The translations under genes were made by a program, and so were the position numbers. Source: Candidatus Latescibacterota bacterium (GTDB taxonomy: Bacteria; Latescibacterota; UBA2968; UBA8231). From it: a stretch of 64,000 nt of DNA. Location of the stretch: positions 2,688,001 through 2,752,000 of the forward strand of contig OZ220089.1 of NCBI GenBank assembly GCA_964291625.2, read 5' to 3'. The notes beneath the pieces were generated by a model. That model saw only the letters and a list, made by a program, of their open reading frames with translations. It ran no database searches and had not been told where the DNA came from. Of the stretch, positions 13,614 to 53,359 are shown piece by piece; within the stretch, counting starts at the first letter, position 1; each line of letters opens with the position of its first letter.

Positions 13614-13935
13614 GCAGCCCACCAGGCCAACGTTCCACCGGATCGAGTGGCGCCGGAGTCACCATCGACTCAGTTCTGCTGCCAGGCGCCACCCGGTTCA
13701 CAAGAGTGCGTGTGCGGGTCTCCAACCACGGAGGGCGGTGCCGGCGGCGCAGGCCGCGCCTGGGCGGCCCATTACGCCGGGCCGGGGTCAACAACCACCA
13801 TCATCCAGGAGGCCCAGAGACCCGAGCGCAGCGAGGGGCTCGCCAGCCACTCGAATCACCCCCAGTCGATAGCTCCCCCAACCAGGCCCGGCGTACGCGC
13901 CGCCAAAGGCGCGGCCGGAGCCGCCGGCACCGTCC
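13614..13935 (+). repeat. Structured intergenic repeat element, copy 1 (full)
   Basis: Upstream hairpin gtggcgcc..ggcgccac; arms 13733-~13783 and ~13885-13935; GCGCAGC at 13826-13832. Confidence 0.92.
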
Positions 13936-13955
13936 GGCCCACAAGCACCCCCCCC

Positions 13956-15410
13956 TCAACAGCGCACCACATCCTCCACATCCTCTACCGCCAGCGTGTC
14001 CTCGTGCACCGGCTGCACCGCCCGCCCCCACGCCGCCAGCACCTCCGCATCCCGCATCAGCTCCGCGCTGCGCCGTGCCACCCGCTCGGGGTCCCACCCG
14101 GCGTAGAGCTGGCCCAGCAGGTCCTGACGCACCGCGGCGCAGGCCGCATCGCCGGCCAGGTCGTTCCACTCGCCCGGATCTTCCTCCAGGTTGAACAAGG
14201 CCGGAGGCGTATCCCCGTGGTACGCATACAGCTTCCACGGTCCCCGCCGGATCATCCGTGAAGGAGGATCGCCGCGGGTCGGCCCCAGCTCGCTGAATGT
14301 GAAATCGGGCCGGGACTCGTCCGGCAGACCCCGCATCTCGCTCCACAACGAGTGGCCGTCGAGGGCGGGCAGGGGCTCGCCGCCGGCCACCTGTATGGCG
14401 GTGGGGGCCCAGTCCAGCAGGTTGCAGATCGCCGTGCTCTCCGTGCCCGCCGGCACCACCCCCGGGAACCGGGCGATGAGGGGGACGCCCACCGAGCCCT
14501 CGTAGTAGTTGCTCTTCCACCAGCAGCCGTGCTCGCCGGCCATCTCGCCGTGGTCGCTGGCGTAGACCACGAGGGTGTTGTCGCTGAGTCCGGTCTCGTC
14601 GAGCTTGTCGAGGAGCTGGCCGACCTTGCGGTCGAAGTACTCGCACAGGCCGAAGTAGGCCGCACGGGCCACCCGGATGCGCTCGGCGGGCAGGGGTACC
14701 TCGATGCCGCGGTGCCTCTTGAAGCTGGTCACCGCCGCCGGCTCCCCGGACGGCTCGGGCTGCGGCACGTCGACGCGGTCGTAGTAGTAGTCGTAGAGAT
14801 CCTTCGGGGCGAAGAACGGGCAGTGGGGCAGCAGGAAGCCGGCCACCGCGGCAAAGGGCCGGTCACCGCCCCGGGCCTTCTCCTCCAGGTAGGCGCAGGC
14901 CGCGTCGGCGACGCGGTCGTCGAAGGACTGGTAGGTGGTGCGGCCGTGGCCGGCGATCTCGACGGACTCGCGGGTCTGGCCCGAGGTGCTGGCGGGGATC
15001 TCCTTGAACATCGGTCCGCCCTGGCCGGCTGCGCCCGGATGGTGGGCGCCGTACTCGCCGATGGGCCGGCGCTCGAAGCCGTGGCGCTGGTCGGGGCCGA
15101 CGAAGTGCATGCGGCCGATCAGCGCGGTCTCGTATCCGGCCGCGCCCACGGCGTGGGCCCAGGTGGGAAGGGCGGAGCTGAGGATGTGCTCGTTGAGCCA
15201 GGCCTCGTTGGCGCTGGGCCGCCGTCCGGTCATGAAGGCCATGCGCGCCGGCACGCACAGGGGCGAGGCGGTGTAGGCGTTGCGGAAGCGCATGCCCTCG
15301 CCGGCCAGGCGGTCGAGGTGCGGGGTGCGCACCACCGCGTCGCCGTAGCAGCCGAGGTGGTATTTGCTGTGCTGGTCGGAAAGGATGAAGAGGATGTTGG
15401 GGCGGTTCAT
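13956..15410 (-). CDS. Sulfatase (choline-sulfatase-like)
   Basis: PNILFILSDQH, formylglycine motif CVPAR..FMTG, SDHGEM.GEHG. Confidence 0.93.
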   Translation of the reverse strand: MNRPNILFILSDQHSKYHLGCYGDAVVRTPHLDRLAGEGMRFRNAYTASPLCVPARMAFMTGRRPSANEAWLNEHILSSALPTWAHAVGAAGYETALIGRMHFVGPDQRHGFERRPIGEYGAHHPGAAGQGGPMFKEIPASTSGQTRESVEIAGHGRTTYQSFDDRVADAACAYLEEKARGGDRPFAAVAGFLLPHCPFFAPKDLYDYYYDRVDVPQPEPSGEPAAVTSFKRHRGIEVPLPAERIRVARAAYFGLCEYFDRKVGQLLDKLDETGLSDNTLVVYASDHGEMAGEHGCWWKSNYYEGSVGVPLIARFPGVVPAGTESTAICNLLDWAPTAIQVAGGEPLPALDGHSLWSEMRGLPDESRPDFTFSELGPTRGDPPSRMIRRGPWKLYAYHGDTPPALFNLEEDPGEWNDLAGDAACAAVRQDLLGQLYAGWDPERVARRSAELMRDAEVLAAWGRAVQPVHEDTLAVEDVEDVVRC

Positions 15411-15464
15411 GGCCTTGGACTCGTCGGCGCGTAATTTAGGGCGCCCCATACATCCTACAAGAGA

Positions 15465-16709
15465 GTGATGCGCAGCGTGAGGTCCGCCAGAGGAGGTGTC
15501 CTCGAGCCCCTGGCCAACGGCGATTTCGTGCGCCTGTGGCTGGCCAACGGCCTCTGGTGGCAGGCGATGTGGATGGAGATGCTGGCCCTGGGGTGGGTGG
15601 CCCTGGAGTTGACCGACTCGGCATGGTGGGTCCAGGTCATCGCCTTCTACCGCGCCGCTCCCCTGCTGATCGTCGGTGTCTTCGGCGCCGTGATCACCGA
15701 CCGCTTCCGGCGGCGCCACATCGTCGCAAGCCTGCAGTTGATCAACGTCCTGGGGATGGGACTGCTGGCCCTGCTGCTCTTCCGCGGAGAGCTGGAGATC
15801 TGGCACCTGTCGGCGGTGTCGCTGGTGCTAGGGGCCGCCTGGGCCCTGGACTGGCCGACCCGCCGCAGCATGGTGCCCGATCTCGTCGGCAAGGCCCGCA
15901 CCGTCGACGCCATGGTTCTGGAGAACGTCATCCAGGGGATCACGCGCGTCGGCGGCCCCCTGGCGGCGGGCTATGTGACCGCGGCCTACGGCAGTCTGGG
16001 CGCCCTGCTGGCGCTGGTCGGGCTGGGCGCCCTCGGGCTGCTGCTGCTGCTGGGCCTCAGGACGGACTCCAGGGCCCCCGTCAAGGGCACCTGGACGTCG
16101 GGATGGGCCGGCCGCCAGGGATGGGCCAGTCTGAGAGGCTCGGCCCCGATGTTCGGCGTCTTCCTGGTCACCGTCCTGATGAACATCTGGACCTTCCCCT
16201 ACATGAACCTGCTCCCCGTCTTCGCCCGCGACGTGTACGGCCTGGGCCCGCAGGCGATGGGGTGGCTGGGCGCCGCCAGCGGGGCCGGCACGATCGTCGG
16301 CCTCGCCGCCGTCCAGCTCGGCCGCCGGAACCTCAGCAACGAGTGGGTCTTCGTCGGCGGCTCCCTGCTCTCGTGCCTGGGAGTCGCCGCCTTCGCCTTC
16401 AGCGCCACCTTCGGCCTCGCCCTGGCGATGCTGTTCTGCTCCGGCCTGGGGCAGGCGGGATTCAGCATCATGCAGAGCAGCATCATCCTGGTGAGGTCCT
16501 CCGACGAGATGCGCAGCCGCGCCATGAGCACCCTGGTCGTGGCCATCGGCGTCGGCCCCTTCGGCCGCCTGCAGAGCGGCGCCCTCGCCGAGACCTGGGG
16601 GGCCCAGGGATCCGTCGGCATCATGGCCGCCCTCGGCGGCCTCGGGATTGCGGCGACCACCGTCCTCCTCCGGGGATTCGTGGGCCGGCGAGAGGAAGCC
16701 TCCCCGTGA
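15465..16709 (+). CDS. MFS transporter
   Basis: ~12 hydrophobic segments, G.ITDRFRRR motif A. Confidence 0.88.
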   Translation: MMRSVRSARGGVLEPLANGDFVRLWLANGLWWQAMWMEMLALGWVALELTDSAWWVQVIAFYRAAPLLIVGVFGAVITDRFRRRHIVASLQLINVLGMGLLALLLFRGELEIWHLSAVSLVLGAAWALDWPTRRSMVPDLVGKARTVDAMVLENVIQGITRVGGPLAAGYVTAAYGSLGALLALVGLGALGLLLLLGLRTDSRAPVKGTWTSGWAGRQGWASLRGSAPMFGVFLVTVLMNIWTFPYMNLLPVFARDVYGLGPQAMGWLGAASGAGTIVGLAAVQLGRRNLSNEWVFVGGSLLSCLGVAAFAFSATFGLALAMLFCSGLGQAGFSIMQSSIILVRSSDEMRSRAMSTLVVAIGVGPFGRLQSGALAETWGAQGSVGIMAALGGLGIAATTVLLRGFVGRREEASP

Positions 16710-17269: not shown

Positions 17270-17621
17270 CACTGGCCCCGACGTCTACCACACCTCTCCC
17301 TGCCGAGAGCATCGCCAGGCATCCACCCCTCACTGCCTCCCATGTCTCCACCCCACTCTCCTTCAAGGGCGTCGCCAAGCCTTCCACCCTCCCACTGCCT
17401 CCCATGTCTCCACCCCACTCTCCTTCAAGGGCGTCGCCAAGCCTTCCACCCTCCCCACTGCCTCCCATGTCTCCACCCCACTCTCCTTCAAGGGCGTCGC
17501 CAAGCCTTCCACCCCCTCACTACCTCCCATGCCTCTACTCCCACTCTTCCAAGGGCGTCGCCAGCCTTCCACCCCTCATCGCCTCCCATGCCTCTACCCC
17601 ACTCCTTCCGAGGGCGTCGCC
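17270..17621. repeat. C-rich tandem repeat, 59-63 bp unit, ~5-6 copies, running into element copy 2
   Basis: Units start 17331, 17393, 17456, 17518, 17577 (cactgcctcccatgtctccaccccactctccttcaagggcgtcgccaagccttccaccctcc); degenerate unit at ~17270. Confidence 0.92.
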
Positions 17622-17811
17622 GGCGGCGCAGGCCGCGCCGGCGCGCGCATTACGCCGGGCCGGGGTCAACAACCACCCTCATCCCGGAGGCCCAGAGACC
17701 CGAGCGCAGCGAGGGGCTCGCCAGCCCTGAGAACCACCCCAAGTCGATAGCACCCGCAGCCAGGCCCGGCGTACGCGCCGCAAGGCGCGGCCGGAGCCGC
17801 CGGCGACGCCC
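17612..17811 (+). repeat. Structured intergenic repeat element, copy 2 (main hairpin only)
   Basis: gggcgtcgccggcggc ... gccgccggcgacgccc arms; ccgagcgcagcgaggggctcg core. Confidence 0.92.
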
Positions 17812-17840
17812 ACGCCAGGACACCCCCCAAAGGCTGACCA

Positions 17841-20434: not shown

Positions 20435-22696
20435 CTACCTGGCGAGGACCATCTTGCGTACGTGAGTGGCCGGCCCCGCCTTCAGGGCGCACAGGTACAC
20501 GCCGCTGGACACCCGTTCGCCGCGATCGTTGCGGCCATCCCAATGGGCGGCGCCGGCACTGGTCAGGTACCGGCCCGCCGCACGATGACGCAGGTCGATC
20601 TTCCGCACCAGGGCCCCGCGCACATCGTGGATCTTCAGCCGCACGTGGGCGGGTGCGTGGAGTTGATAGGGAATCCAGGTGTCCGGATTGAAGGGATTGG
20701 GGAAGTTGGCCAGCAGCGCCGTCCGTGCCGGTAGGGGCGTAGAGGATCGAATCGCCGTCGGCGCGGGGGGAGTGAAGTCTGGTGACGTATCCCACAGCAG
20801 AATCGTGCCGTCGGCGCTGGCACTGGCCAGGAGGTTCCCGTCCGGTGAGAACGTCACGGAATGGACAGATCCCGTATGGCCTTTGAGGATGGCTCTTGGC
20901 GACCCGCCACTCACCTCCCACAGCCTGACGGTCTGGTCCGAACTGCCACTGGCCAGGATGTCTCCCCGAGGCGAGAAGGCTACCGCATTGATCCAGGCGC
21001 CATCGACCTCCATGGTGCCCTCTTGCTGACCGCTGCTCAGTTCCCACAGCCTGATCGTCTGATCCCAGCCGCCGCTGGCGAGGGTTCTCTCGTCCGGCGA
21101 GAAAGCAACGGAAGTGACCCAGCCCGTGTGCCGCAGAGTGGACTTCAGCTGTCCGCTGTCGGCATCCCACACTCGCGCCGTCTTGTCTCCACTGGCACTG
21201 GCGAGGATCTGTCCGGAGGGTGAGAAGGCCACGGACAGGACCCGTTGACCATGCTCCCCCAGGCTGGCTCTGGCCTGTCCGCTGGACACGTGCCACAACC
21301 GCACCTTCCCGTCCTCGTCGCCGCTGGCCAGGGTTGCACCGTCCCGGGCGTATGCCACGCAGAGCACGCCATTCCGATGGCCCTCGAGGATCCTCGCCGC
21401 CAACGGTGTCCAGGTGCCGACGTTCGAGGCTCCCCAGGTGGCCTTCCGCACCTCGGCCATGTCCCACAGCACGACCCAGTCGTTCAAGTGGCCACTGGCG
21501 AGTGTCCGGCCATCGGGCGCGAAGGCGACGGCGCTGGCACGAGGCCCCCGTGGGGTTTTCATGGTGGCCTCTTCCTGTCCCGTGCCGAGGTCCCACAATC
21601 GCACCGTCCCGTCCCAACTGCTGCTGGCGACGGCGGCGGCATCGGGGGCGAAGGCCACGGAACTGACCCTGTCTCCATGTCCATGGTCCAGGAGAGCGCC
21701 TTCCTCCAGTCCGGAGCGGACGTCCCACAGCCGTACCTTGTTTTCTCCCCCGGCACTGGCGAGTGTGGTTCCATCGGGTGAGAAGGCCACGGAAGTGAAG
21801 TGCGAGGCCGCGCGCCTGGCCCTGGCTTTCCTCTCCCTGGTGCCGATCTCCCACAACACGAGTTCGTGGTTCCTGCCGACACTGGCGAGGGTTCTGCCAT
21901 CGGGGGAGAAGGCTACGGAGTTGACCCCGGATGAATGCCCGCGCATGTCGGCTCTCGGTTGTCCGCTGTCGACGTCCCACAGGCGGATCGTCTGGGTCCT
22001 GGCACTGGCAAGGGTTCGACCTTCGGGGGCGAAGGCAACGGAGTTGACGGACCCGGCTCCCCCATATCCCTCGAGGAGGGCTCCTGGTTGCCGGGTGCCG
22101 GGGTCCCATAGCTGCACCGTGCCGTTTCGGTAGCCACTGGCGAGTGTCCGGCCATCTGGCGCGAAGGCCAGGGAATTGACCGAGGACCGTTGTCCTTCGA
22201 GGGCAGCCGTCGATTCTCCGGTGGCCACCTGCCACAACCGCACCGTCTGATCCTTGCTGCCGGTAGCCAGGAGTTGTCCGTCCGGGGAGAACGTGACGCA
22301 GAGGACATCGTTCAGATGGCCTTCGAGGGTGGCCCTTGACTCTCCCGTGTCGACGTCCCACAACCTCACCCTATGGTCGGCACTCGCACCGGCGAGGGTT
22401 TTCCCATCAGGAGCAAAGGCCACGGAGTTCACCGGGGCCGCATGCCCTGTGAGCAGGGCGACTTCAGCATTGGTGTGGACATCGTAGAGCCAGACGCCGA
22501 CGTTCCCGGCCACCGCCAGCCGGGTGCCATCGGGAGAGTAGGCCACGGCCCGATCGCCTCCACTGGTGAGTCCCTTGCCCAGACGGAGGACGGCCCCCTC
22601 GGGCAATCCCCAGCGGGCATGGTCCTGAGCCTGGCTGCCCGGCGGGAAGGACAGGGGGTTCAGCAGAAGGGCCAGGGGGAACAGGATCCTCTTCAT
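20435..22696 (-). CDS. Secreted WD40-repeat protein with C-terminal FlgD-Ig/sorting-like domain
   Basis: Signal peptide; more than 12 GH...V.SVAFSPDG..LAS.S.D.TVRLWD repeats; C-terminal NFPNPFNP..WDGRN..G..VSSGVY. Confidence 0.92.
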   Translation of the reverse strand: MKRILFPLALLLNPLSFPPGSQAQDHARWGLPEGAVLRLGKGLTSGGDRAVAYSPDGTRLAVAGNVGVWLYDVHTNAEVALLTGHAAPVNSVAFAPDGKTLAGASADHRVRLWDVDTGESRATLEGHLNDVLCVTFSPDGQLLATGSKDQTVRLWQVATGESTAALEGQRSSVNSLAFAPDGRTLASGYRNGTVQLWDPGTRQPGALLEGYGGAGSVNSVAFAPEGRTLASARTQTIRLWDVDSGQPRADMRGHSSGVNSVAFSPDGRTLASVGRNHELVLWEIGTRERKARARRAASHFTSVAFSPDGTTLASAGGENKVRLWDVRSGLEEGALLDHGHGDRVSSVAFAPDAAAVASSSWDGTVRLWDLGTGQEEATMKTPRGPRASAVAFAPDGRTLASGHLNDWVVLWDMAEVRKATWGASNVGTWTPLAARILEGHRNGVLCVAYARDGATLASGDEDGKVRLWHVSSGQARASLGEHGQRVLSVAFSPSGQILASASGDKTARVWDADSGQLKSTLRHTGWVTSVAFSPDERTLASGGWDQTIRLWELSSGQQEGTMEVDGAWINAVAFSPRGDILASGSSDQTVRLWEVSGGSPRAILKGHTGSVHSVTFSPDGNLLASASADGTILLWDTSPDFTPPAPTAIRSSTPLPARTALLANFPNPFNPDTWIPYQLHAPAHVRLKIHDVRGALVRKIDLRHRAAGRYLTSAGAAHWDGRNDRGERVSSGVYLCALKAGPATHVRKMVLAR

Positions 22697-22823
22697 CAGG
22701 TTCAGGCATTCCTCGGGACGGGCAGGAGGGAGGCTCGGGCCGCGGTTCGGGAACATACGAACCGGCCACCCTCGACCCCCTATCGGGGCCGTCAACGCGG
22801 CTCGGCGACGGAGGTGCCTCGCG

Positions 22824-43576: not shown

Positions 43577-43593
43577 CGAGAGGCTGGAAACTC

Positions 43594-43830
43594 ATGGCGA
43601 TGAAGAACCCACCACATCCGGGCCGCAGCATCAAGGAGAGCTGTCTGGCCCCCCTCGGCCTGAGCGTCACCGAAGCGGCGAAGGTGTTGGGCATAGCTCG
43701 TCACACGCTCTCCCGCGTCCTGAACGGCCATGCGGCCATCTCGCCGGAGATGGCCATTCGACTGGAGAAGGCGGGCTGGTCCAACGCGGAGTTCTGGCTG
43801 CGGCGACAGATCGCCTACGATCTGGTATAG
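43594..43830 (+). CDS. higA: HigA-family antitoxin (probable premature stop; reading continues to 43887)
   Basis: MKNPPHPG....[32 protein letters not shown]; after TAG reads ARRTEGKIQVRPYEPEIA*. Confidence 0.88.
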
Positions 43831-43898
43831 GCCCGCCGGACCGAAGGGAAGATCCAGGTCAGGCCCTACGAGCCGGAGATAGCCTGAGCAACCAAGCC

Positions 43899-44195
43899 AT
43901 GGATCACCCCTCGCCCCGGCCCTCCACCCCATGGCGGGTCCACAGCGTCGAAGCCCTGCCCGGACTTCGGTTGCAGGTCCGCTTCACGGACGGCACATCG
44001 GGTGAGGTGGACATGGGGAGGTTCCTCCAGAGCCCCGCCGTCCGAGGCACCCCCTTCGAGCCGCTCCTCGATGAGAGCCTGTTCAGCCAGGTTCGCGCAG
44101 ACCTCGGAGCCGTCACTTGGCCCACGGGAGCCGATCTCGCTCCCGACGCCATGTACGACGCCGTCCGCGCCTCAGGAGAGTGGATCCTCGAGTAG
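43899..44195 (+). CDS. DUF2442-domain protein
   Basis: L.VRFTDG..G.VD, F.QV...GAVTWP.GADLAPD.MY. Confidence 0.85.
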   Translation: MDHPSPRPSTPWRVHSVEALPGLRLQVRFTDGTSGEVDMGRFLQSPAVRGTPFEPLLDESLFSQVRADLGAVTWPTGADLAPDAMYDAVRASGEWILE

Positions 44196-44206
44196 TCGGG
44201 GACACC

Positions 44207-44535
44207 CCCCAACCGCAGCCCACCAGGCCGGCGCTCCACCAGAGCAAGTGGCGCCGGACCCACCCCAGGCCCAGAACAACCCCCCAGGCGCCACCCCACC
44301 CCTAAAGGAGTGTGTGGTGGTGGTCCCCCCCAGGGCGGTGACGGCGGCGCAGGCCAAGCCGAGCGGCGCATTACGGCGGGCCGGGGTCAACAACCACCCG
44401 CATCCAGGAGGCCCAGAGACCCGAGCGAAGCGAGGGGCTCGCCAGCCCCACGAATCCACCCCAGGCGATAGCCCCACCAAACAGGCCCGCCGTACGCGCT
44501 GCCGAGGCGCTGGCCGGAGCCGCCGTCACCGCCCC
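44207..44535 (+). repeat. Structured intergenic repeat element, copy 8 (full)
   Basis: Arms with compensatory tacggcgggcc/ggcccgccgta; core GCGAAGC. Confidence 0.93.
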
Positions 44536-44589
44536 GCGCCAGAACCACCCCCCATCACCACAGCTGTCGTCTTCATGGTCGATCTCCCT

Positions 44590-45780
44590 TCAGTCGAAGA
44601 AACCCGCGTCCTCTTCGGAGAGGTGCCGCTTCGCCTCCTCGACGACGAACTCCACCCCCAGTCCCGGGGAATCCCACACCTCGATGTGGCCGTCGGCGAC
44701 GATCGGGTCGGGCAGCCCGGTGACCATGTCGAGCCAGGACTCCTCGTACCGGCCCGGCATCTCGAAGGCGATGTAGTTCTGCGGCAGGGTGGCGGCGAGA
44801 TGGACATGGGCCGCCAGTCCGAAGAGCCCGTCGATCACTCCGTGGGGGGCCATGAGGATGCCGTGGAGGTCGGCGTACTCGGCGATCCACTTCGTCTCCG
44901 CGATCCCGCCGACGTCGGCCGGGTCGGGGCCGACGACGTTCACCGCCTGCTTCTCGAAGAGTTCCTTGAAGTGCTGCCGCAGGTAGATCTGCTCCCCCGT
45001 GTGGATCGGCGTCGAGGTGCTGCGCGTCACCTCCCGGTAGAGGTCGGCGAGCACGTACGGGACGTAGTCGCCGGTGATCATGTCCTCGAGCCACATCAGG
45101 TTCAACGGCTCCACGGCTTGGGCCAGCCGTATCGAGTCGGGGACCGTCATTCCGGGACCGCAGTCGAGGGCGAGGCCGACCTCGTCTCCCAGCTCCGCCT
45201 TCATCGCCTCGGCGCAGGCGATCACGTGCTTCAGGCCCCGCTCCGTCAGCGGGCCCCGGTTGGCGTGCCAGCGGCCGCCCGAGCTCTCCCCGTAGAAGAA
45301 GCCGGGGACGTGCGCGGGCATGCCGCTGTGGAAGGCGACGCCCATCTTGCACAAGGTGAACCCCTGCGGCAGCTCCCGGACGGCGCGGGCGGCAGCGGCG
45401 TATTCCTCGGGCCGGGAGTCCGTCACCGGAACCGGAGAGCCGGTCAGGTAGACCCGCACCCGGTCGCGGATCTTGCCGCCGAGCAGCTTGTACACCGGAA
45501 CCCCCGCGGCCTGGCCGGCGATGTCCCAGAGCGCCATCTCGATGGCGCTGACCGCACTGCCCCAGGGCTTGAAGCCCCCGAGCCGCCGGATGCCGAGCAT
45601 GACCCGCTCGACGTCGGTCGGGTCCATGCCGAGAACGAGGTCGCGGTAGAACAGGACGTGGGGCTTGAGGTAGGGCTTGGAGGACTCCACCTGCCCCGTG
45701 CCGACGATCCCCTCGTCCGTGAGGATGCGGACGATCGGATGGCGGCCGATGACGGCGCACTTCAGATCGATGATCTTCAT
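44590..45780 (-). CDS. Mandelate racemase/MLE family dehydratase
   Basis: SAIEMALWD, LDCG, LED, TGEQ, APH, PGLG. Confidence 0.92.
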   Translation of the reverse strand: MKIIDLKCAVIGRHPIVRILTDEGIVGTGQVESSKPYLKPHVLFYRDLVLGMDPTDVERVMLGIRRLGGFKPWGSAVSAIEMALWDIAGQAAGVPVYKLLGGKIRDRVRVYLTGSPVPVTDSRPEEYAAAARAVRELPQGFTLCKMGVAFHSGMPAHVPGFFYGESSGGRWHANRGPLTERGLKHVIACAEAMKAELGDEVGLALDCGPGMTVPDSIRLAQAVEPLNLMWLEDMITGDYVPYVLADLYREVTRSTSTPIHTGEQIYLRQHFKELFEKQAVNVVGPDPADVGGIAETKWIAEYADLHGILMAPHGVIDGLFGLAAHVHLAATLPQNYIAFEMPGRYEESWLDMVTGLPDPIVADGHIEVWDSPGLGVEFVVEEAKRHLSEEDAGFFD

Positions 45781-46700
45781 GACAGCCTCTGGGCGACCTC
45801 CACCGGGAGGCCGTCTCCCGCGTCGAGGGTGATCGAGCGGATGGGCACCCCAAGGGCGAGATCGCGCTCCCCAGGCGGCGTGCCGTGGGCGATCTCCCCG
45901 GCCAGGGCGTCCACGTCGTCCGTCCAGAGCCCGAAGGAGCCCACGACCCCGCGGCCGAGACCATCGGTGGTCCCGCCGTCCTTCCGCCCCCGCAATTCGA
46001 TGTCGCACATGCCGGCGGCGAAGACGTACCCCTCGTGCGTGCCGCTGTCGGAGTGGTCGATGACGGACAGCCCCAGCTTCTCCCCGTACAGCGCCTTCCC
46101 CCGGCCGATGTCCGGGCACTCCATGGCCATGTGATCGAAACCCTTGAGCAGGCTCCCGGCGGAGAGGCTGGCGATCCGCTGCTTCTCCCGCCGCCTCTCC
46201 TGGTTGTGCAGCCTCGGGTCCACGATCTCGGAGATCTGGATCGGGTAACCGTTCGGATCGACGAACTCCAGCAGGCTCCTCTGCATGTAGGCGTGGTCCA
46301 TCGGCTGCACGATGGGTCCGTCCTTCGTTGCCCGGAACCTGTTGGACGCGAAGAAGCCCTCGAAGTGCGAGAAGGCATGGTGGTTGCCCTCGACGTAGAA
46401 GGACCAGTGTCCGACCGAGCCGTAAGCCTGCCCCGTCCTCTCGCCCTCGGGCGACAGCAGCACGGGGGCGGCCTCGTCCTCCCGCAGAACCAGGAAGGAG
46501 TCGCCCACCTGGAGGACGGCCTCGCGGTCGCCGCTCTCGGCGGCGGCGCCGTCCACCCACTCGCCCTTCTCGTTCTGCACGGCGGTGGTGTTCTGCAGCT
46601 CGGTGAGGCCGAGGCGCCGGCCATAGACCTCCCGGCACTCGTCCCAGAGGCGTGTCCGCATCTCGATGTAGGCGATTCCCGTGATCATGTTCGACAACAC
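45777..46700 (-). CDS. Two-domain VOC/glyoxalase-family protein
   Basis: Y...LGL, GHWSF, F.DPNG..I, FDHMA, Y.EKLGL. Confidence 0.75.
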   Translation of the reverse strand: MLSNMITGIAYIEMRTRLWDECREVYGRRLGLTELQNTTAVQNEKGEWVDGAAAESGDREAVLQVGDSFLVLREDEAAPVLLSPEGERTGQAYGSVGHWSFYVEGNHHAFSHFEGFFASNRFRATKDGPIVQPMDHAYMQRSLLEFVDPNGYPIQISEIVDPRLHNQERRREKQRIASLSAGSLLKGFDHMAMECPDIGRGKALYGEKLGLSVIDHSDSGTHEGYVFAAGMCDIELRGRKDGGTTDGLGRGVVGSFGLWTDDVDALAGEIAHGTPPGERDLALGVPIRSITLDAGDGLPVEVAQRLS

Positions 46701-46782
46701 CTTCCCAGGCCCGTGCCGGAGACGCAGGGGTGAGGGAGGGGGACCGCGTGTGCTACGTCACTGCCGACGGCAGGTTGCATCT

Positions 46783-47091
46783 TCACGGCTCACCTCCAAG
46801 CGCACGCACAACCGCCTCGGGATCGCGGTCGATGACGGTCAGCAGCACCCGGGCGGCCCGGTCAGGCACACGCCGCCCCTGTTCCCACTCCTGCAGGGCC
46901 CGCGCATCCAGGCCGAATCGGTCCGCGAACTTCCGGCGACTCAGCTTCATGCGCTTGCGCAGCGCGACGATATGTTCGGCGGCGGGATCGTCCACGATCC
47001 GGCAGGGCAGTTCCACTTCGCCGCGCACATGGGCAAGCACCTCGCCCAAGGCGGTCTCGACTTCCTGCCCCACCTGAGTCCGTTCCGTCAT
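46783..47091 (-). CDS. XRE HTH antitoxin (HigA2-like)
   Basis: I.ALR...LS...FA..FG.....LQEWEQGRR.PD.AA..LL.VI...P. Confidence 0.88.
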   Translation of the reverse strand: MTERTQVGQEVETALGEVLAHVRGEVELPCRIVDDPAAEHIVALRKRMKLSRRKFADRFGLDARALQEWEQGRRVPDRAARVLLTVIDRDPEAVVRALGGEP

Positions 47092-47094
47092 CTG

Positions 47095-47260
47095 TCAGCC
47101 TTCTCCTCCCCAACGCATCTTGCGAATCCCTCCCGTACCACGGAGCAAAGGCGCCGCGTCGGGATCGGCGACGATGGCGGCCTCCATCTCCCTGCGCTGG
47201 TCCACCCGTGAGGAGCTTGCCGATGGCGCGCTCGTAGGCTCGGGTGATGACCAGTCGCAC
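47095..47260 (-). pseudogene. RelE/HigB2-family toxin, frameshifted and truncated
   Basis: VRLVITRAYER..KLL, then a second frame with I.ADPDA..L.RGTGGIRKMRW followed by a stop. Confidence 0.75.
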
Positions 47261-47327
47261 GGTCACTGAAAATGCGGCATTGCCGCAGGTCCGGCAAGGT
47301 GTCCTGGGCAAGGCCTCTCTCTCCCGT

Positions 47328-47632
47328 CCCACCAGGCCCGCGTTCCCCACGGATCGAGTGGTGCCGGAGTCCGGCACCCCCACCAAGCGCCACCCGCCCC
47401 AGAGGGAGTGCGTGTGGGCGGTCCCCACCCAGGGCGGTGGCGGCGGCGCAGGCCGAGCCGAGCGGTGCACTATGCGGGGCCTCGCCACCAACCACCACGC
47501 ATCCAGGAGGCCTAGAGACCCGAGCGTAGCGAGGGCACCCCAACCCTCGAACCACCCCCCGTCGATAGCTCCGCCACCCAGGCAGCGCGTACGCGCTGCC
47601 GCGGCGCGGCCGGAGCCGCCGGCACCGCCCCC
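47328..47632 (+). repeat. Structured intergenic repeat element, copy 9 (full, divergent)
   Basis: Arms conserved; core GCGTAGC. Confidence 0.9.
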
Positions 47633-48081
47633 TGCCAGTACCCCCCACCTACCCCTATCTTCCACTCACCCAAACCCATCCATGCCAATCCTTCTGATCC
47701 CCCACCCGGCCAAGCAGATGGCCCCCTCCGATTGCGCAGCGCCATCACCACCCAGGGCCTCCGGGCTGGCCCGCGGGCCAGCCAAACGGCCGCCCATCGG
47801 AGAGTCGTTGGACACATGCCTCGGGGAGAATCCCCATGCCGGTCGGACCCCCTAACGAGGAGACAACCGCAGAACGCTCCTTGATTGGCTCTAGGGTAGC
47901 CCTGCAGGTTTCAACTCCAAACGCACCGCTGATGGGCCCCAGTTTGGAACACAGCAATGAAGCTGGGAGGCCTCAACTTGCATTCAAGTGCCCGTGAATG
48001 CGGTGGTGGCTCCCGCTCCCGAGCATCCTCTCTATGGGGCACGGAATGGTGATAAGGCGCCCCGGGAAAGGCCGACCTCTA

Positions 48082-49860
48082 ATGCGACTATCACGAGTAC
48101 AGATACGGAACTTTCGGAATTTTAACACCCTGGACGTCGAGCTATCAGAGAATGCGGTTGTAGTCGGCGAGAACAAGATCGGCAAGACCAACCTGCTGCA
48201 CGCGATGCGATTGGTGCTTGATCCGACCTTGCCCGACTCAGCACGGCATCTGAAGGACGAAGATTTCTGGGATGGTCTGCCTCGACCCCTTGCGCGCGAA
48301 CACAGGATAACCGTTTCGATTGACCTCACGGACTTCGAAGGCGACGAGGACCAAGTTGCTTTGCTGTGCGAACACCTGGTCGTAGCTGAGCCAATGACGG
48401 CGAGGCTGACATATGTGTTCCAGCCGCTTGAGACATTGGATGGCGAACCGTCCAAGGAGTCTGACTACGAGTTCGTGCTGTACGGGGGCGATCGTCCCCA
48501 GAATCGCGTTGGTTATGAGATTCGTCGACGGCTGCCTTTCGATCTGCTACCCGCGCTTCGCGATGCGGAGGGAGATCTGCGAAATTGGCGACGTTCTCCA
48601 CTCCGCCCACTCCTGGACCTAGTTGCTGGGCGTATCGATCGGGAAGCACTGGTGGCACTAGCGAGGGACATTTCTGCTGCCACAGCAGCTGCCGCTGGCA
48701 ACGAGGAAGTGAAGAGGCTCGTCGATGAGATAAACCGGCGCGTGAGGACCCTAGTGGGTCCGTTTCAGACGGTCGATACGTCGCTTGGATTCTCTCCGAG
48801 CGATCCAGAGCGCCTCTTGCGAGCGATGCGCCTGTTCGTTGACGCGGGGAGGCGCGAAATCGGCACGGCCAGCTTGGGATCCACGAACGTGCTGTACCTT
48901 ACCCTCAAGGCTCTGCAACTAGATGAATCAGTTGCGGAGAGGGAGAGGCATCACACGTTCCTCGCAATTGAGGAGCCAGAGGCGCATCTCCACCCCCACT
49001 TGCAGAGACTCGCTTACCGGGGGCTTCTCCGCCCTCCAGAAGGTCATGGTCACACATCACCCCTAACGGCGGTGCTTACCACGCACTCACCTCACATCGT
49101 GAGTGTTGCCCCTCTCAATTCGCTTGTCCTATTGCGAAAGACGCAAGCCGGGAACAGCAGTGAGGGGGTGTCTACGGCCAAATTGGAGCTTGCCTCGGAA
49201 GTCGTGGCCGATCTTGAGCGATACTTGGACGTTACACGCGGAGAGATGCTCTTCGCCAAGGGCGTACTGCTCGTTGAGGGCGAGGCAGAGCGATTCTTGC
49301 TTCCGGCTCTAGGGAAGTCCAATGGAATCGATTTCGACGAGCTCGGGATCTCGGTTTGCTGCGTAGGGGGTACGAACTTCCGGCCGTACATCGAGTTTCT
49401 GGGTGACCGTGGGCTGGACCTGCCAGTCGCCGTGCTCACAGATGGAGATCCGGCGAAGGACGGTCGGAGACGCGGGGAGGAACGGGTGTTGAGTTTGCTG
49501 CGTGATGCCGTCGCCCCGTCGGACCTTGATGGGAAGACGGACGGGCAGCAGCTTGAAATGGCTAGGGACCGGGGGTTTTTCGTCGGTGATTACACCTGCG
49601 AGGTAGATCTGTTCGGGAGCGGGGCCCACAGGCAAATTGGGAAGACACTAGTTGAGTTGGCTCCAGGGGAGGCCGTTCGGAGTAGAGCGGAAGCCTGGAC
49701 AGCCAGCCCGGAGGACTTGGATCCAGTGCGCTTTCTGGCGGACATCTCATCGATTGGAAAGGGTCGCTTCGCTCAGCGGCTATCGGCGCGCGTCGAAGGT
49801 GGCAGCTGGCCAGCCTACATGAGGGATGGTATCGAGTATGTCCGCACCCGCTGTCGCTAG
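48082..49860 (+). CDS. gajA: OLD-family ATP-dependent nuclease (ABC ATPase + TOPRIM), Gabija GajA-like
   Basis: NFRNF, GENKIGKT, IEEPEAHLHP, TTHSP, LLVEG..E, TDGD; visibly lower GC. Confidence 0.85.
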   Translation: MRLSRVQIRNFRNFNTLDVELSENAVVVGENKIGKTNLLHAMRLVLDPTLPDSARHLKDEDFWDGLPRPLAREHRITVSIDLTDFEGDEDQVALLCEHLVVAEPMTARLTYVFQPLETLDGEPSKESDYEFVLYGGDRPQNRVGYEIRRRLPFDLLPALRDAEGDLRNWRRSPLRPLLDLVAGRIDREALVALARDISAATAAAAGNEEVKRLVDEINRRVRTLVGPFQTVDTSLGFSPSDPERLLRAMRLFVDAGRREIGTASLGSTNVLYLTLKALQLDESVAERERHHTFLAIEEPEAHLHPHLQRLAYRGLLRPPEGHGHTSPLTAVLTTHSPHIVSVAPLNSLVLLRKTQAGNSSEGVSTAKLELASEVVADLERYLDVTRGEMLFAKGVLLVEGEAERFLLPALGKSNGIDFDELGISVCCVGGTNFRPYIEFLGDRGLDLPVAVLTDGDPAKDGRRRGEERVLSLLRDAVAPSDLDGKTDGQQLEMARDRGFFVGDYTCEVDLFGSGAHRQIGKTLVELAPGEAVRSRAEAWTASPEDLDPVRFLADISSIGKGRFAQRLSARVEGGSWPAYMRDGIEYVRTRCR

Positions 49861-51649
49861 ACCATCGCCGGCTTATTGGCAGGCCGTGGAAGAGCTTCAG
49901 GAGAATCCTGGTCAGTGGCAAGCGTACAACTCGGATGGACACTGCGTTGTGCTCGCAGGGCCAGGAAGCGGCAAGACCAGGACACTCACCGTGAAGATTG
50001 CGAAGCTGCTGATTGAGACAATTCACGAACCTCGTGGGTTAGCGTGCATCACCTACAATTCGGAGTGTGCGCGTGAGCTGAAGGCTAGGCTTGAGCGACT
50101 GGGAGTGTATGAGTCCAGAAGTGTCTTCATTGGGACAGTTCACTCATTCTGCTTGAGGCGAGTGGTGATTCCCTTTTCAGCCTTGGCGGGCATCGAGCTG
50201 CCGGAGGACTTCCGTATTGCACTAGAGAGCGAACAAGAGGCCGCGTTTGAGGAGGTCAGGGCTCGGGTCAGCCCCGATGGGCGGTCGCGGGGGCTGCGTA
50301 CGATGGCGGAGAAGTACCGACGTACTCACCTTGATCGGGACGGTGCGGAGTGGCAGGAGGACAAGGAGTTGGCGGCCTTGGTGGCCGGCTACGAGCAGTT
50401 GTTGAGAGCAGGAGGGATGATCGACTTTGACGACATGGTGCTTATCGGGCTGAAGCTGATCGAGAGTCGGAAGTGGGTACGCCGGGCACTTCACGCACAG
50501 TTCCCCGTGGTCGTTGTTGATGAGTACCAGGACTTGGGCTTGGCGCTGCATCGGATTGTGAGCAATCTCTGTTTCCGAGGAGGTTCGCGTCTCTTTGCGG
50601 TTGGGGATCCTGACCAGTCGATCTATGGCTTCGCAGGAGCACGGCCAGAGCTATTTCGCGGCCTAGCGGACTCTCCCGAGGTGGAGGCCGTACAGCTGCC
50701 ATTCAACTACCGAAGTGGGGAGACGATTGTTCAAGCCGCGGAGATCGCGCTTGGGGAGACCCGTGGCTATGAGGCGCGTGGAGCTAACGCGGGATCGGTA
50801 GACTTTCACGAGCGACCGAGGGGTCTTGACGATCAAGCGGAGTATATCTGTGGTGAGATAATCCCGTCTGCAATGGAGAGGGTTGAGGGCCTACAGCTTG
50901 CCGATGTGGCAGTGCTGTATGTCGACAGGAGCGACGGAGACGTGATCGCTGGGAGGGCAAAGCAACACAAGTACGCTACAGTGAGGGTTGACCGGGGTGC
51001 ACCCTACCGCAAGACTCCGCTGATCAGATGGTTAGAGGACTGTTCTGCATGGTGCGCGGGGGGTTGGGCTACTGGGTCCCCGCGGTTAAGCTCTCTCCTT
51101 GGTACTTGCGCCTCCATCCTTGGGATGCATGCTGGGGATCGTGAGTGGCATGAGCACAAGGTGAGGCTCGTGGGAGTGCTGCTTTCCCAACGGCAGCCAG
51201 AGCTGTTACTGCGAGAGTGGCTGACAACGCTCAAGAGGGAAGTCTTAGACCTGTTCTTGGAGAGGGACATGACGTTGAGGGACGAGCGGGAGGCGTTAGG
51301 TGTGGTCACGGAGGCCTGCAAGATCGGCGGAGTGCTTGGAGAGTGGAGTGTCGCCGCTTTCGGTGGGCAGGGCGGTTCCCCTGACCACCTAAACCTCATC
51401 ACCCTGTGGAGTGCAAAGGGGCATGAGTATAGAGTAGTCGTCATGATGGGTATGGAGGAGGGACGGGTTCCTGGGTGGAACGCTAGCGAGTTGGAGAAGC
51501 GGGAGCAGCGGAGGCTGTTCTACGTGGGGCTCACTAGAGCGAAGGAGGAGGTCCACATGACCTACTCTGGCTGGAGGGAGAATCGGTACGGGCGACGGTT
51601 CTTTGATGGACCCTCGAGGTTTCTTGTGGAGGTTCGCGAACGTCTCTAG
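49838..51649 (+). CDS. gajB: UvrD/PcrA-family helicase, Gabija GajB-like
   Basis: AGPGSGKT, VDEYQD, VGDPDQSIY.F.GA, NYRS, SAKG.E, RLFYVGLTRA; overlaps the OLD gene. Confidence 0.85.
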   Translation: MSAPAVARPSPAYWQAVEELQENPGQWQAYNSDGHCVVLAGPGSGKTRTLTVKIAKLLIETIHEPRGLACITYNSECARELKARLERLGVYESRSVFIGTVHSFCLRRVVIPFSALAGIELPEDFRIALESEQEAAFEEVRARVSPDGRSRGLRTMAEKYRRTHLDRDGAEWQEDKELAALVAGYEQLLRAGGMIDFDDMVLIGLKLIESRKWVRRALHAQFPVVVVDEYQDLGLALHRIVSNLCFRGGSRLFAVGDPDQSIYGFAGARPELFRGLADSPEVEAVQLPFNYRSGETIVQAAEIALGETRGYEARGANAGSVDFHERPRGLDDQAEYICGEIIPSAMERVEGLQLADVAVLYVDRSDGDVIAGRAKQHKYATVRVDRGAPYRKTPLIRWLEDCSAWCAGGWATGSPRLSSLLGTCASILGMHAGDREWHEHKVRLVGVLLSQRQPELLLREWLTTLKREVLDLFLERDMTLRDEREALGVVTEACKIGGVLGEWSVAAFGGQGGSPDHLNLITLWSAKGHEYRVVVMMGMEEGRVPGWNASELEKREQRRLFYVGLTRAKEEVHMTYSGWRENRYGRRFFDGPSRFLVEVRERL

Positions 51650-51936
51650 GACGGGGGGTAAGGGGTGTCTATTTACGATGCTTAGGTTTGGAGGGGGTGA
51701 GGAACCCTTCGGGCCTTCATCAGAAGGAGGGAAGAGAGTCCTGATCCATTGCGTTCCTCTCTGCTCGTAGGGGATGCATCTCTTCTGGGGAGGGCGTCTT
51801 GGAGAGCGGCCGCAGTTTAGGGGGAGGCGTGGTGGATGCGGTGGGCGACGAATAATCTTGCTTGCTGCGGGAGACCGCAGGAGGTGGGTGCTTGAGTAGA
51901 ACCGCAAGGCAGACCGTATAGTTTGGAGGCGCTAAA

Positions 51937-52395
51937 GTGAAGACAGTCTTCTTTGTTCTTTCGGTAGTGATGTTTTATCCAGAGGCCAAGTCGGAAGATG
52001 CCGAGGAAGAAGGCCCTGTTCTGACTCTCGATAGGCTGTTGTCCAAGTCTGAACAGGCAGAGATGGGCCTGCACAAGCTGACGGAGGAGGAGAAGGGGCG
52101 GCTTCGTGACTACGTGGTCAGAATGTTCATCGCGGGGGTTGAGGAAGGGAAGAGGCAGGTTGGTAGCGCCCAGTTGTCCCAGGTCATCGAGAGCCAGATC
52201 GACGGTGACTTTGACGGGTGGGAGGGTGAGACGATCGTGAAGTTGATGAATGGTCAGATTTGGCAGCAGTCGGAGTTCTACTACCACTATCACTATGCCT
52301 TTATGCCGGACGTACTGATTTACAATTCGGGTGGGGTGTACAAGATGATTGTGGAAGGTGTTGACAGGGCGATCGGGGTCATTCAATTGAGATAG
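51937..52395 (+). CDS. Hypothetical secreted protein
   Basis: Signal-like N-terminus; IDGDFDGWEGETIVKLMNGQIWQQ; ggagg RBS; lower GC. Confidence 0.7.
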   Translation: MKTVFFVLSVVMFYPEAKSEDAEEEGPVLTLDRLLSKSEQAEMGLHKLTEEEKGRLRDYVVRMFIAGVEEGKRQVGSAQLSQVIESQIDGDFDGWEGETIVKLMNGQIWQQSEFYYHYHYAFMPDVLIYNSGGVYKMIVEGVDRAIGVIQLR

Positions 52396-52589
52396 GGCGG
52401 GGAGTTTGGACGGGGGTGGCAAGTTCGTTAGGCGTCGCCCAGGGCCTGGAGTGCCAGTCGACCATCGTGGCCATCCGCTGGAAACCGGGACCGATGGCGG
52501 TCAACTGGGGGTCGCCGCCACCGATCAAAGCACCGGAGTTGGTCTCGGCCCCCGCGACACACGGTCCAAAATGAGTGTGTGGTTGAGTG

Positions 52590-52700
52590 ATTCCCCTGCA
52601 GACATCCACATTGCCGCGGTTGCGGCTACTGCCGGCGCCTGCGCCGTCTGGCGCCGAGCTGGCCGCCGATCGCTTCAAGCACGTCAAGTTCAGGGAGTCG
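52590..52700 (+). pseudogene. Possible PIN/VapC toxin C-terminal remnant
   Basis: ADIHIAAVA..G, then in another frame ADRFKHV; short and frameshifted. Confidence 0.35.
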
Positions 52701-52807
52701 GAGACGTATACGGACCCTGCCAGGCGAGCCCCACGAGGCGTGAGCTATGGCCGTCAGGCAGCCTTGTGAGATCTCTGCGTCTCATCGCACTCTGCCGGAG
52801 CTCACCG

Positions 52808-52993
52808 ATGGAATACCGCGTCTTGATCGAGCAGGATGAAGATGGAGTCTTCGTGGCAGCAGCCCCCTCACTCCCCGGTTGCATCAGCCAGGGTGCCACA
52901 CGTCAGGAGGCGCTGACCGGCATCCGCGAGGCGATGACCCTGTACCTGGAGAGCCTTGCCGCGTATGGTGATCCCATACCGCCTCCGGTCTGA
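52808..52993 (+). CDS. hicB: HicB-family antitoxin (orphan)
   Basis: MEYRVLIEQDEDGVFVA..PSLPGCISQG.T..EAL..IREA..LYLE. Confidence 0.9.
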   Translation: MEYRVLIEQDEDGVFVAAAPSLPGCISQGATRQEALTGIREAMTLYLESLAAYGDPIPPPV

Positions 52994-53018
52994 AGAGACC
53001 GTCGAGCTCCAGGATCCC

Positions 53019-53359
53019 CCGCCAACCCCAGCCCCACCAGGCCGGCGCCCCACCAGATCGAGTGGCGCCGGAGTCCCCCCCCGGCCCAGAACCCCTGCCA
53101 GGCGCCACCCGGCCCAGAAACAGTGTGTGTGGGCGGTCCCCGCAGGGCGGTCCCCGCAGGGCGGTGACGGCGGCGCAGGCCGAGCCGAGCGGCGCATTAC
53201 GAGGGGCCGCGCCACCAACCCCCGCATCCAGGAGGCCCAGAGACCCGAGCGCAGCGAGGGGCTCGCCGACCCCTCGAACCACCCCCAGTCGATAGACCCA
53301 CCACCAAAGCCCCGCGTACGCGCCGCCGAGGCGCGGCCGGAGCCGCCGGCACCGCCCCC
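53019..53359 (+). repeat. Structured intergenic repeat element, copy 10 (full; 14-bp duplication at left foot)
   Basis: gggcggtccccgca x2 at 53131-53158, then the left arm; core GCGCAGC. Confidence 0.93.

Follow-up and report, generated by a model that had tools for sequence, protein, structure and literature searches.

Within a 64,000-nucleotide stretch of a Candidatus Latescibacterota genome (GenBank assembly GCA_964291625.2, contig OZ220089.1, positions 2,688,001 to 2,752,000; the window), ten copies of one repeated element are found, all on the plus strand, which belong to a new, lineage-restricted family of sense-oriented, extragenic, structured non-coding elements built around a long hairpin. 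That the fold is under selection is strongly supported, since 36 of its 49 base pairs change on both sides while about 94% of the pairing is retained. The placement of the elements fits that of a sense-transcribed RNA element at the 3′ ends of genes or between cistrons, similar to repetitive extragenic palindromic (REP) sequences. The best explanation, to which we assign a probability of roughly 0.45, is an RNA barrier that may also serve as an insulator. Action at the level of RNA, in whatever form, appears likely overall, and a role as single-stranded DNA (ssDNA) exposed during replication less so.

The window has a G+C content of 69% and lies on the array contig (C1) of a 5.9-Mb assembly (genome G000). 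The copies are located at 13.6, 17.5, 23.4, 32.2, 36.6, 40.2, 41.1, 44.2, 47.3 and 53.0 kb, as found by a repeat search and nhmmer. A profile built from them detects only 12 copies in the whole assembly, all on the plus strand within 65 kb (C1:2675855-2741373), two of them just upstream of the window; one weak reverse-strand self-match was also returned. The element is larger than described in the initial annotation, which had been made from the sequence of the window: an additional module A of about 110 nt, conserved and with a purine-rich spacer after a GTGGCGCC...GGCGCCAC hairpin, precedes the palindrome (module B). A full copy measures about 340 nt, and elements overall span 200-340 bases. 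Module B is an imperfect palindrome of about 220 nt with an apical C-GNA-G hairpin (195-271 nt among the copies; 221 positions in the model).

The palindrome forms a rod of about 45 bp, featuring a GNA/GNA internal loop and a tandem G.A motif, which opens into an A/C-rich interior; the interior holds an invariant CCAGAGAC...GGCTCG core that clamps a short hairpin, usually capped by C-GNA-G. Constant in all members are GCGCATTACGCCGG / CCGGCGTACGCGCC near the top of the rod, the tandem GA/GA motif in the middle of the stem, and the core CCAGAGAC-hairpin-GGCTCG(A/C)CA(A/G)CC, in which GAG can pair with CTC. The stem of the core hairpin covaries freely. Most members close this hairpin with a C-GNA-G triloop (nine of the ten copies in the window, 32 of the 37 close copies and 11 of 17 further members). 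Most of the first ten diverged copies have it, and it is absent from the four of G028, a genome of a sister genus, where an 8-nt loop takes its place. Copies of the array type have the cap GC-GNA-GC, and other members have GAC-GCA-GTC, GGC-GTA-GCC, CGC-GAA-GCG or CC-GAA-GG. In G028 the GCA/GGA internal loop has become GCA/GCA, keeping the two G.A pairs and losing the middle one. Six-frame translations of six copies have no open frame in common, and a peptide-coding repeat of the type I toxin kind was rejected on this ground.

Covariation was analysed in alignments of increasing divergence. The first (A1) comprises 37 two-armed copies from six genomes of the genus. Removal of partial copies in which one or the other end of the model was missing had left 38 candidates, of which copy 6 was dropped for want of a 3′ arm. 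With a 49-pair structure written on this alignment, 94.2% of 1787 cells are paired and ten pairs (30 cells) have changed on both sides. None of 500 shuffles reaches any of these measures, and partners slid out of register pair at 33-50%. The G and A positions of the GCA/GGA internal loop are invariant in all 37 copies. Taken alone, the covariation in this close set is real but thin, because many of the changes are common to orthologous copies.

The diverged members settle the structure. Ten of them contribute 91 compensated double-change cells, compared with 23 mismatches, 13 G.T and 8 A.C cells. In a second alignment (A4) of 20 rows, fitted to the covariance model and made up of the ten window hits and these ten diverged copies (close copies from G002, G004, G005, G006 and G007 being left out), 36 of the 49 pairs have changed on both sides (105 cells), and 93.9% of cells are paired against 79.6% in shuffles; 0 of 500 shuffles reach the observed values, in a control which, as for A1, ignores phylogeny. 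A structure-blind alignment by MAFFT, folded with RNAalifold, recovers the rod helix, with 15 of 27 predicted pairs compensated, from 17 sequences (the same ten diverged copies and seven of the ten window copies, without 4, 5 and 6). The proposal of the initial annotation that the structure is selected thus draws strong support from the compensated changes in all three alignments.

The sequence details quoted in that annotation are all present in the window. The outer arm is GTGCCGG/CCGGCAC in copy 1, GTGACGG/CCGTCAC in copies 3 and 8 and GGGCGTCGCC/GGCGACGCCC in copy 2, and the inner arm is TACGGCGGGCC/GGCCCGCCGTA in copy 8 versus TACGCCGGGCC/GGCCCGGCGTA elsewhere. The internal loop GGCGCAGGCC opposite GGCCGGAGCC is kept in all nine window copies that have both arms. 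The apex GCGNAGC occurs in nine of the ten copies (N is C in six, A in copies 7 and 8 and T in copy 9) and is missing from copy 4. As a bare motif GCGNAGC is not enriched: it occurs 87 times in the window, and shuffles contain 88 ± 9; only its fixed place within the repeat is meaningful. The outer position cited as covarying (columns 20/272) has an A.G mismatch in 17 of the 37 aligned copies, repaired to C-G in nine, A-T in six, G-C in two and T-A in one; two copies have G.G, and C.T is never seen.

The assignment of the fold to the top strand receives modest support. As for any palindrome, both strands of copy 7 form the long hairpin. Folded as DNA, the top strand reaches -96.7 kcal/mol (z = -5.1) versus -101 (z = -2.9) for the bottom strand, and as RNA -177.5 (z = -4.2) versus -218.4 (z = -3.0), so that the top strand stands further from its shuffles in both cases. 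Stem cells with G.T outnumber those with A.C, at 32 vs 19 in the close copies and 13 vs 8 in the diverged ones; the unpaired segments are A/C-rich on the top strand, including CAACAAC; and the orientation of the element follows that of the upstream gene (see below). Nucleotide identity is about equal between orthologous and paralogous copies, at roughly 85-90%.

The range of the family was traced with two covariance models, R1 from the 37 close copies and R2, which also includes the diverged copies; their E-values are rough. R1 matches all nine genomes of the genus and one of the two genomes of one sister genus (G028), with scores of 47-70 bits in G028 and in three genomes of the genus where BLAST had found little or nothing. 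It matches nothing in 16 further genera of the family, and nothing in three other families (57 genomes). R2 matches the nine genomes of the genus and both of the sister genus, with no match in the 16 other genera. In G000 it detects a thirteenth, diverged copy on the plus strand (C1:4270032-4270225; L125:4033-4226; 79 bits), 7 nt before an ATP-binding cassette (ABC) transporter ATPase gene. Its match counts are ten in G001, nine in G028, four in G003, three in G009 and two in G014, and the copy number between species ranges from 1-3 up to 16. Confinement to one locus is therefore true only of a highly similar sub-family, which has been amplified in one sub-clade of the genus.

Among 185,579 species genomes, the exact core of the array type is limited to 17 stretches, all of them in metagenome-assembled genome records labelled Gemmatimonadaceae or Candidatus Latescibacterota, and a metagenome collection has two such stretches; near-identical pieces are present in two sequencing runs labelled sponge metagenome (X4 and X6). 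A gapped pattern of the core gave two stretches in viral contigs, which R1 did not match there and which were treated as chance, and a viral origin was discarded. Rfam 15, including 6S, Y RNA and HEARO, has no match at gathering thresholds in the whole window and none at E ≤ 5 over 40150-41550. No description of the element was found in the literature searched, a search that did not extend to supplementary motif lists. Upstream of the diverged 'b-type' members, GNA-capped hairpins of the form CAAGAT-TYCGGC-GMA-GCCGRA-GCG occur one to three times (L110:3900-4030 in G001; L089 and L093), and these small leading hairpins seem to correspond to module A. A separate, abundant small REP-like family derived from the mini-hairpin of module A was also considered and discarded, as such hairpins are not abundant in the G000 genome.

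Outside the array, members of the family recur at particular places. The element lies between rpsU and a convergent RNase D gene in three species, between the RNase Y gene (rny) and ymdB in two, and between the solute-binding protein and permease genes of an ABC operon. Two species of the sister genus have it between a glycoside hydrolase (GH) 4 gene and a TIM-barrel gene. Other members follow sufBD, a DsbA-like gene or a response regulator, or precede queC or a sulfatase gene. The gap after rpsU holds a member in G001 and, by analogy, in G003 and G009; in G000, rpsU (C1:3221600-3222018) lies between a gene for a 275-residue protein and the convergent RNase D gene, and no family member is found there. 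Across genera, the element precedes orthologous ilvD/edd-like genes (copy 10 and G028) whose products share 84% amino acid identity.

The orientation of the neighbouring genes was scored at 39 loci. Of the upstream genes, 26 share the direction of the element, 7 oppose it and 6 could not be scored (26/33 scorable), or about 21/28 when obvious orthologous loci are collapsed. Of the downstream genes, 22 are co-oriented and 15 opposite, with 2 unscored (22/37). Orientation thus tracks the upstream gene much more than the downstream one, which favours RNA, because an orientation linked to replication would not give such an asymmetry. Gene-strand bias along the chromosome is negligible and provides no signal of replication. 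In five copies (c2, c3, G009a, G028a and L125) the next start codon comes only 7-22 nt after the hairpin, and the top strand there must therefore be within the message, so that some copies must be transcribed; the 3′-end and intercistronic positions, like those of REP sequences, also favour RNA. Extrusion of a cruciform from duplex DNA is unlikely, because the interior of about 100 nt is not palindromic; the fold would therefore need a single strand, either a transcript or DNA at a replication fork.

Sequences resembling promoters, read here against general consensus sequences, lie on the 3′ side of the element. In copies 9 and 10, CTGCCA/CTCCCA-N18-TATCTT begins 2-3 nt after the hairpin, TTGACA-N17-TACAAT follows the element in G001b, and rpsU of G000 is preceded by TTGTCG-N17-TATCTT, with the same -10-like TATCTT as after copies 9 and 10. 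We suggest that the top strand is transcribed as a 3′ extension or intercistronic part of the upstream message and that its very stable fold acts in the RNA, as a barrier or processing site which would set the 3′ end and stability of the upstream transcript. The same fold may insulate the promoter of the next gene, beginning 2-3 nt after the hairpin in several copies. The element is ancient at some sites, and local duplication in one sub-clade produced the 12-16 same-direction copies of one island.

REP sequences and the bacterial interspersed mosaic elements (BIMEs) built from them, found in enterobacteria and pseudomonads, are extragenic imperfect palindromes presumed to form 3′ barriers in transcripts. 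They resemble the element in their conserved mismatches, in their position at 3′ ends and between cistrons, including the junction of ABC binding-protein and permease genes, and in being rare between divergent genes, as the element is (7 of 33 scorable upstream neighbours are opposite). The REP unit is about 20-40 nt long and is present in hundreds of copies, compared with about 220-340 nt and 13 copies for the element in G000. Unlike REP, the element is 5-10 times longer (190-220 nt plus module A), has an invariant apical core, forms a one-direction array in one island and is not accompanied by a REP-associated tyrosine transposase (RAYT) or other Y1 transposase in six carrier genomes. The nearest known kinds are REP/BIME by placement and the attC sites of integrons by array logic, and the element lacks the defining features of both.

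A number of observations weigh against a sense-transcribed barrier. There is neither a promoter-like site upstream of the element nor a T-run after it. Four of the 12 array copies (u1, c1, c4 and c6) do not have a co-oriented upstream gene, and copy 1 is intact although it lies between two minus-strand genes. Some of the neighbour calls rest on open reading frames (ORFs) called from the G+C content of third codon positions that have no Pfam hit. A canonical terminator is already present between rpsU and the element in three cases (G003b, G009b and L110). Cells of the G.U type are few (about 2-3%) and only about 1.7 times as frequent as A.C, a low share for a typical RNA family. The sole RNA library consists of contigs, which give no strand, ends or level. 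The invariant core suggests a specific partner, which a simple barrier would not need. Other points speak for DNA: rearrangements cluster at the hairpins, and the C-GNA-G triloops and GNA/GNA loops are, according to two papers, best known as DNA motifs (PMC13037366; PMC3201870). In addition, the top strand is probably the lagging-strand template both for the array and for the copy at 4.27 Mb, because both lie on the plus strand to the right of a probable oriC. This origin is placed at about 2.532 Mb, some 145 kb left of the array, on the basis of three DnaA-box-like 9-mers (at most one mismatch) within about 50 nt (C1:2531818-2531873), beside dnaA (2532420-2532905, minus strand) and a local change in sign of the GC skew; like the promoters, it was read against a general consensus.

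The element could instead be a cis-regulatory leader RNA, binding a protein or ligand or acting as a Rho-dependent attenuator, that controls the downstream gene and co-regulates the operons of the island. A co-oriented gene does begin 0-140 nt downstream at 22 of 37 loci, the pair of element and ilvD/edd-like gene is kept across genera, and copies stand before three PhyH genes that are not orthologous to one another; the core, invariant and single-stranded, could serve for binding, and C-rich, G-poor tails follow the hairpin. However, the downstream gene is convergent at 15 of the 37 loci, and a promoter-like motif separates element and gene in at least six copies, which places the element outside the 5′ untranslated region (UTR) of that gene. 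The partner genes (rpsU, ymdB, queC, an ABC permease, a sulfatase) are unrelated in function, and the 45-bp rod is, to our knowledge, unlike known riboswitches. We consider a leader RNA unlikely. An argument from UTR-like composition was dropped, since the sequences after stops and before starts are themselves only slightly C-rich (0.37 C vs 0.33-0.34 G).

A stand-alone family of small RNAs (sRNAs), acting in trans or sequestering proteins in the manner of 6S/Ms1 or a sponge, with a promoter for each copy, seems more doubtful still. The rod-like shape with its large interior and terminal hairpin, the A/C-rich loops including CAACAAC, and the several copies in long gaps between convergent genes after a terminator would suit such RNAs. 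In their general features, 6S/Ms1 RNAs and the RNase III hairpins of the phage T7 early region are comparable to the element: long imperfect duplexes with conserved internal loops, lying in one direction between genes, or a rod with an interior and a terminal hairpin. In contrast to 6S, the element has a much larger interior, a shorter terminal stem, many copies per genome and no Rfam match, even at E = 5. Moreover, promoter-like sites number none in 40000-48000 (four copies), a looser scan finds them only outside module B, and none precedes the element; the bias towards a co-oriented upstream gene is unexpected for independent genes, and five copies abut the next start codon. Paralogous sRNA families tied to polysaccharide loci are reported in Bacteroides (PMC11697453).

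The main alternative at the level of DNA is a recombination or landing site that folds in ssDNA on the lagging-strand template, so that the array would be an integron-like cassette array without an integrase, with the hairpins as the places where blocks are gained, lost and shuffled. All 12 array copies of G000 share one direction over 65 kb, and the copies in the arrays of G006 and G007 do likewise. Gene-sized blocks differ between the three, many of them at or next to repeats. In G007 the 1.7-kb block between the first two copies has a different location. G006 carries two additional blocks that bring further repeats with them, and a PhyH block and a DAO gene have changed place there. A 5.1-kb low-GC block (Gabija-like genes and hicB) that starts within about 25 nt of the 3′ end of copy 9 is unique to G000 among the three, and a stretch of 2.9-4.3 kb, 10-15 nt from the 3′ end of copy 8, is missing from G000. 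Tandem duplications at the hairpin base (the repeats at copy 2, whose units all end in the initial bases of the B arm, AAGGGCGTCGCC; 21 duplicated nt in copy 10; and partly duplicated arms around G001a), the toxin-antitoxin (TA) modules beside copies and the probable position of oriC would also agree with such a site. So would the occurrence of C-GNA-G and GNA/GNA motifs in ssDNA origins and hairpin promoters (PMC13037366).

Against such a site, the three arrays are otherwise largely collinear (85-95% nucleotide identity), indels beside long palindromes are expected from fragility alone, and the duplications in copies 2 and 10 look like slippage at the hairpin base. Diverged members stand singly at conserved positions beside housekeeping genes, and orientation agrees more often with the upstream than with the downstream gene. 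Candidate enzymes are also lacking. The four tyrosine recombinase (PF00589) hits of the G000 genome lie at 77 kb, 206 kb and 4.12 Mb of C1 and at 591 kb of C2, none of them near 2.66-2.76 Mb; Y1 transposase (PF01797) has no hit in G000 nor in the five other carriers (completeness 92-96%); no resolvase, relaxase (PF03432) or coupling protein (PF02534) is found in the G000 genome; and the annotated species-specific blocks contain no recombinase. Of the attC core motifs, GTTRRRY is found within 30 nt of module B in none of the nine two-armed copies, and a single stray RYYYAAC lies outside it. Membership of integrons, HUH systems or conjugative systems was accordingly rejected. The reading in the initial annotation of an ssDNA, rather than RNA, structure recognised by HUH transposases or integron integrases is not supported, and the single members beside housekeeping genes are a further objection to it. 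The ssDNA recombination site as a whole is improbable. A narrower form, in which the hairpins serve as lagging-strand landing pads of a cassette array that uses no known integrase or HUH enzyme, for example through host Xer or replication and repair, and derives from a hairpin family kept elsewhere too, is rather improbable as well.

The array resembles attC cassette arrays in its same-direction imperfect palindromes parting variable gene blocks, in its conserved strand-specific mismatches and in the TA modules among the blocks. It differs in having neither IntI nor the RYYYAAC/GTTRRRY cores that are the consensus of attC, in its blocks of 0.9-23 kb with their own promoters, and in its single relatives beside housekeeping genes; attC sites are about 57-141 nt long, compared with 195-271 nt for module B. 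One paper describes GNA-type mini-hairpins in the G4 origin, RSF1010 ssiA and N4 promoters and reports an exceptional thermal stability of d(GCGNAGC) as DNA (PMC13037366), and another places Frpo upstream of same-strand genes, near TA and anti-defence genes (PMC11541004). The element shares with the Frpo, ssi and N4 hairpin promoters an orientation-specific folded strand of about 200-330 nt with GNA mini-hairpins but, unlike them, has no -35/-10 in the stem, lacks a conjugative or phage context, and is chromosomal and vertically conserved.

It is also conceivable, although quite unlikely in our judgement, that the element is a selfish or relic palindromic repeat, akin to REP or to miniature inverted-repeat transposable elements (MITEs), whose hairpin is kept for some mobilising enzyme or by recent descent and brings the host no benefit. 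It is indeed multicopy, extragenic and palindromic, partial or decayed copies are common, especially in G007, and species differ in copy number, from 1-3 to 16. However, the searches for a transposase yielded no candidate, and, by reading, no target-site duplications are seen around the palindrome. Unlike the ends of IS200/IS605 elements and MITEs, it has no TnpA Y1, and copies stand at conserved sites across species. These sites are kept across species and genera while the sequence has turned over through compensated changes, and long-term purifying selection at fixed sites is therefore needed.

With its invariant core and about 45 covarying pairs, the family would add a large and well-supported structured non-coding element to what is known of a little-studied lineage, uncultured bacteria that live in association with sponges and are recorded as Gemmatimonadaceae or Candidatus Latescibacterota. 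Its anatomy is unusual: G.A-rich motifs occur together with C-GNA-G triloops, features more familiar from folded DNA, and the element has been amplified in one direction in a catabolic and defence island. If it acts as RNA, it would represent a REP-like but far more elaborate means of shaping operon expression in high-GC bacteria with few canonical terminators; if it acts as DNA, it would be a cassette boundary of a new kind. In both cases the alignment and the pair of models make the question directly testable.

The region of the array is a polysaccharide and sugar-acid catabolic and defence island. Its genes include a sulfatase, heparinase II/III-like and GH-like genes, four enolase-superfamily dehydratases, PhyH, an ilvD/edd-like dehydratase, ABC transporters and an extracytoplasmic function (ECF) sigma factor, as well as WD40, HicA, HicB and HigA genes and a low-GC pair of OLD-family and UvrD genes (Gabija-like). 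The positions of the copies and their immediate neighbours are listed in the table, with copy 8 as the reference for the anatomy.

Table. Copies of the element in the window, with associated features (window coordinates; B, module B).
Feature	Position	Strand	Description
Copy 1	13610-13949	+	module A and hairpin B (B = 13723-13945); nhmmer; R1 206.5 bits; between two minus-strand genes (GH42-like operon start; sulfatase end; Pfam)
Tandem 62-63-nt repeats	17328-17600	+	3-4 units, directly 5′ of copy 2
Copy 2	17517-17827	+	B = 17602-17821; variant outer arm GGGCGTCGCC/GGCGACGCCC; 14 nt before plus-strand GHL10-like gene
Copy 3	23430-23766	+	B = 23537-23757; plus-strand GNAT gene upstream; enolase-superfamily start codon downstream
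Copy 4	32238-32544	+	B = 32342-32536; internal deletion, apical GNA hairpin lost; between ECF sigma gene (minus) and PhyH gene (plus)
Copy 5	36593-37008	+	B = 36740-37010; insertion of ~50 nt in 3′ half of interior
Copy 6	40216-40491	+	truncated: module A, 5′ arm and apical core, without 3′ arm
Copy 7	41111-41457	+	B = 41224-41446; apex GCGAAGC; upstream of PhyH gene starting at 41490
Copy 8	44210-44552	+	reference anatomy
Copy 8, module A stem	44247-44257 with 44285-44294		
Copy 8, outer helix	44333-44348 with 44519-44534		
Copy 8, GCA/GGA internal loop	44349-44351 opposite 44516-44518		
Copy 8, inner helix	44371-44382 with 44484-44494		
Copy 8, conserved core	44412-44421		CCCAGAGACC
Copy 8, apical hairpin	44420-44436		GCGAAGC at 44425-44431
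Copy 8, further sequence	44435-44447		GGGCTCGCCAGCC
Copy 9	47318-47647	+	B = 47422-47640; apex GCGTAGC
Copy 10	53033-53373	+	B = 53149-53367; 21-nt duplication at 53131-53172; hicB-like gene upstream; ilvD/edd-like dehydratase downstream

Between the hairpin of copy 3 and the enolase-superfamily start codon there is no space for a promoter. Copy 6 covers only positions 61-161 of model R1 and has a HicA-domain ORF downstream. The promoter-like CTGCCA-N18-TATCTT after copy 9 is followed by the low-GC block with the Gabija-like genes. This block (47650-52750, G+C 0.59) encodes an OLD-family ATPase/TOPRIM protein (47998-49860) and a UvrD-like helicase (49826-51649).

Four sequencing runs were available as contigs, including the single RNA library (X4), giving no strand, ends or level, and their coverage was not used as evidence. 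Nor was any weight given to the following: bins containing repeats are no deeper than those of genes in the run contigs; the low-GC region at 47.4-52.7 kb has cover only in X1 and none in X2, X4 and X6, and no well-supported contig spans it; and several short-sided joints between different repeat copies (for example 36872 to 41378 and 40200 to 53149) may be assembly effects at repeats.

Several genes of the TA type lie directly upstream of copies: the HicA-domain ORF (40478-40894) before copy 7, HigA and a DUF2442 protein (43594-43830 and 43899-44195) before copy 8, and a HicB-like antitoxin (52808-52993) before copy 10. An AbiEi/AbiEii pair is located just upstream of the array (L001:5416-6928), and the ORFs flanking the first array copy encode a TIM-barrel protein and AbiE. 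The block found only in G006 (L042:17684-L043:3644), between two extra repeats, carries an ECF sigma factor, a possible anti-sigma factor, a TonB-dependent receptor (CarboxypepD_reg, Plug) and a DUF4249 protein, a layout that resembles the regulatory units of polysaccharide utilisation loci in Bacteroidetes.

At least five paralogs of the enolase superfamily (MR_MLE / sugar-acid dehydratase) are present in the window, at 4094, 8394, 24029, 44590-45705 (minus strand) and 58247, and among them only the gene at 23767-24816 is directly preceded by a copy of the repeat. On the minus strand, a eukaryote-like protein of 799 residues with 12 WD40 repeats is encoded at 20435-22834, and the 126-nt periodicity of its DNA accounts for a further repeat family (D2) of the window.

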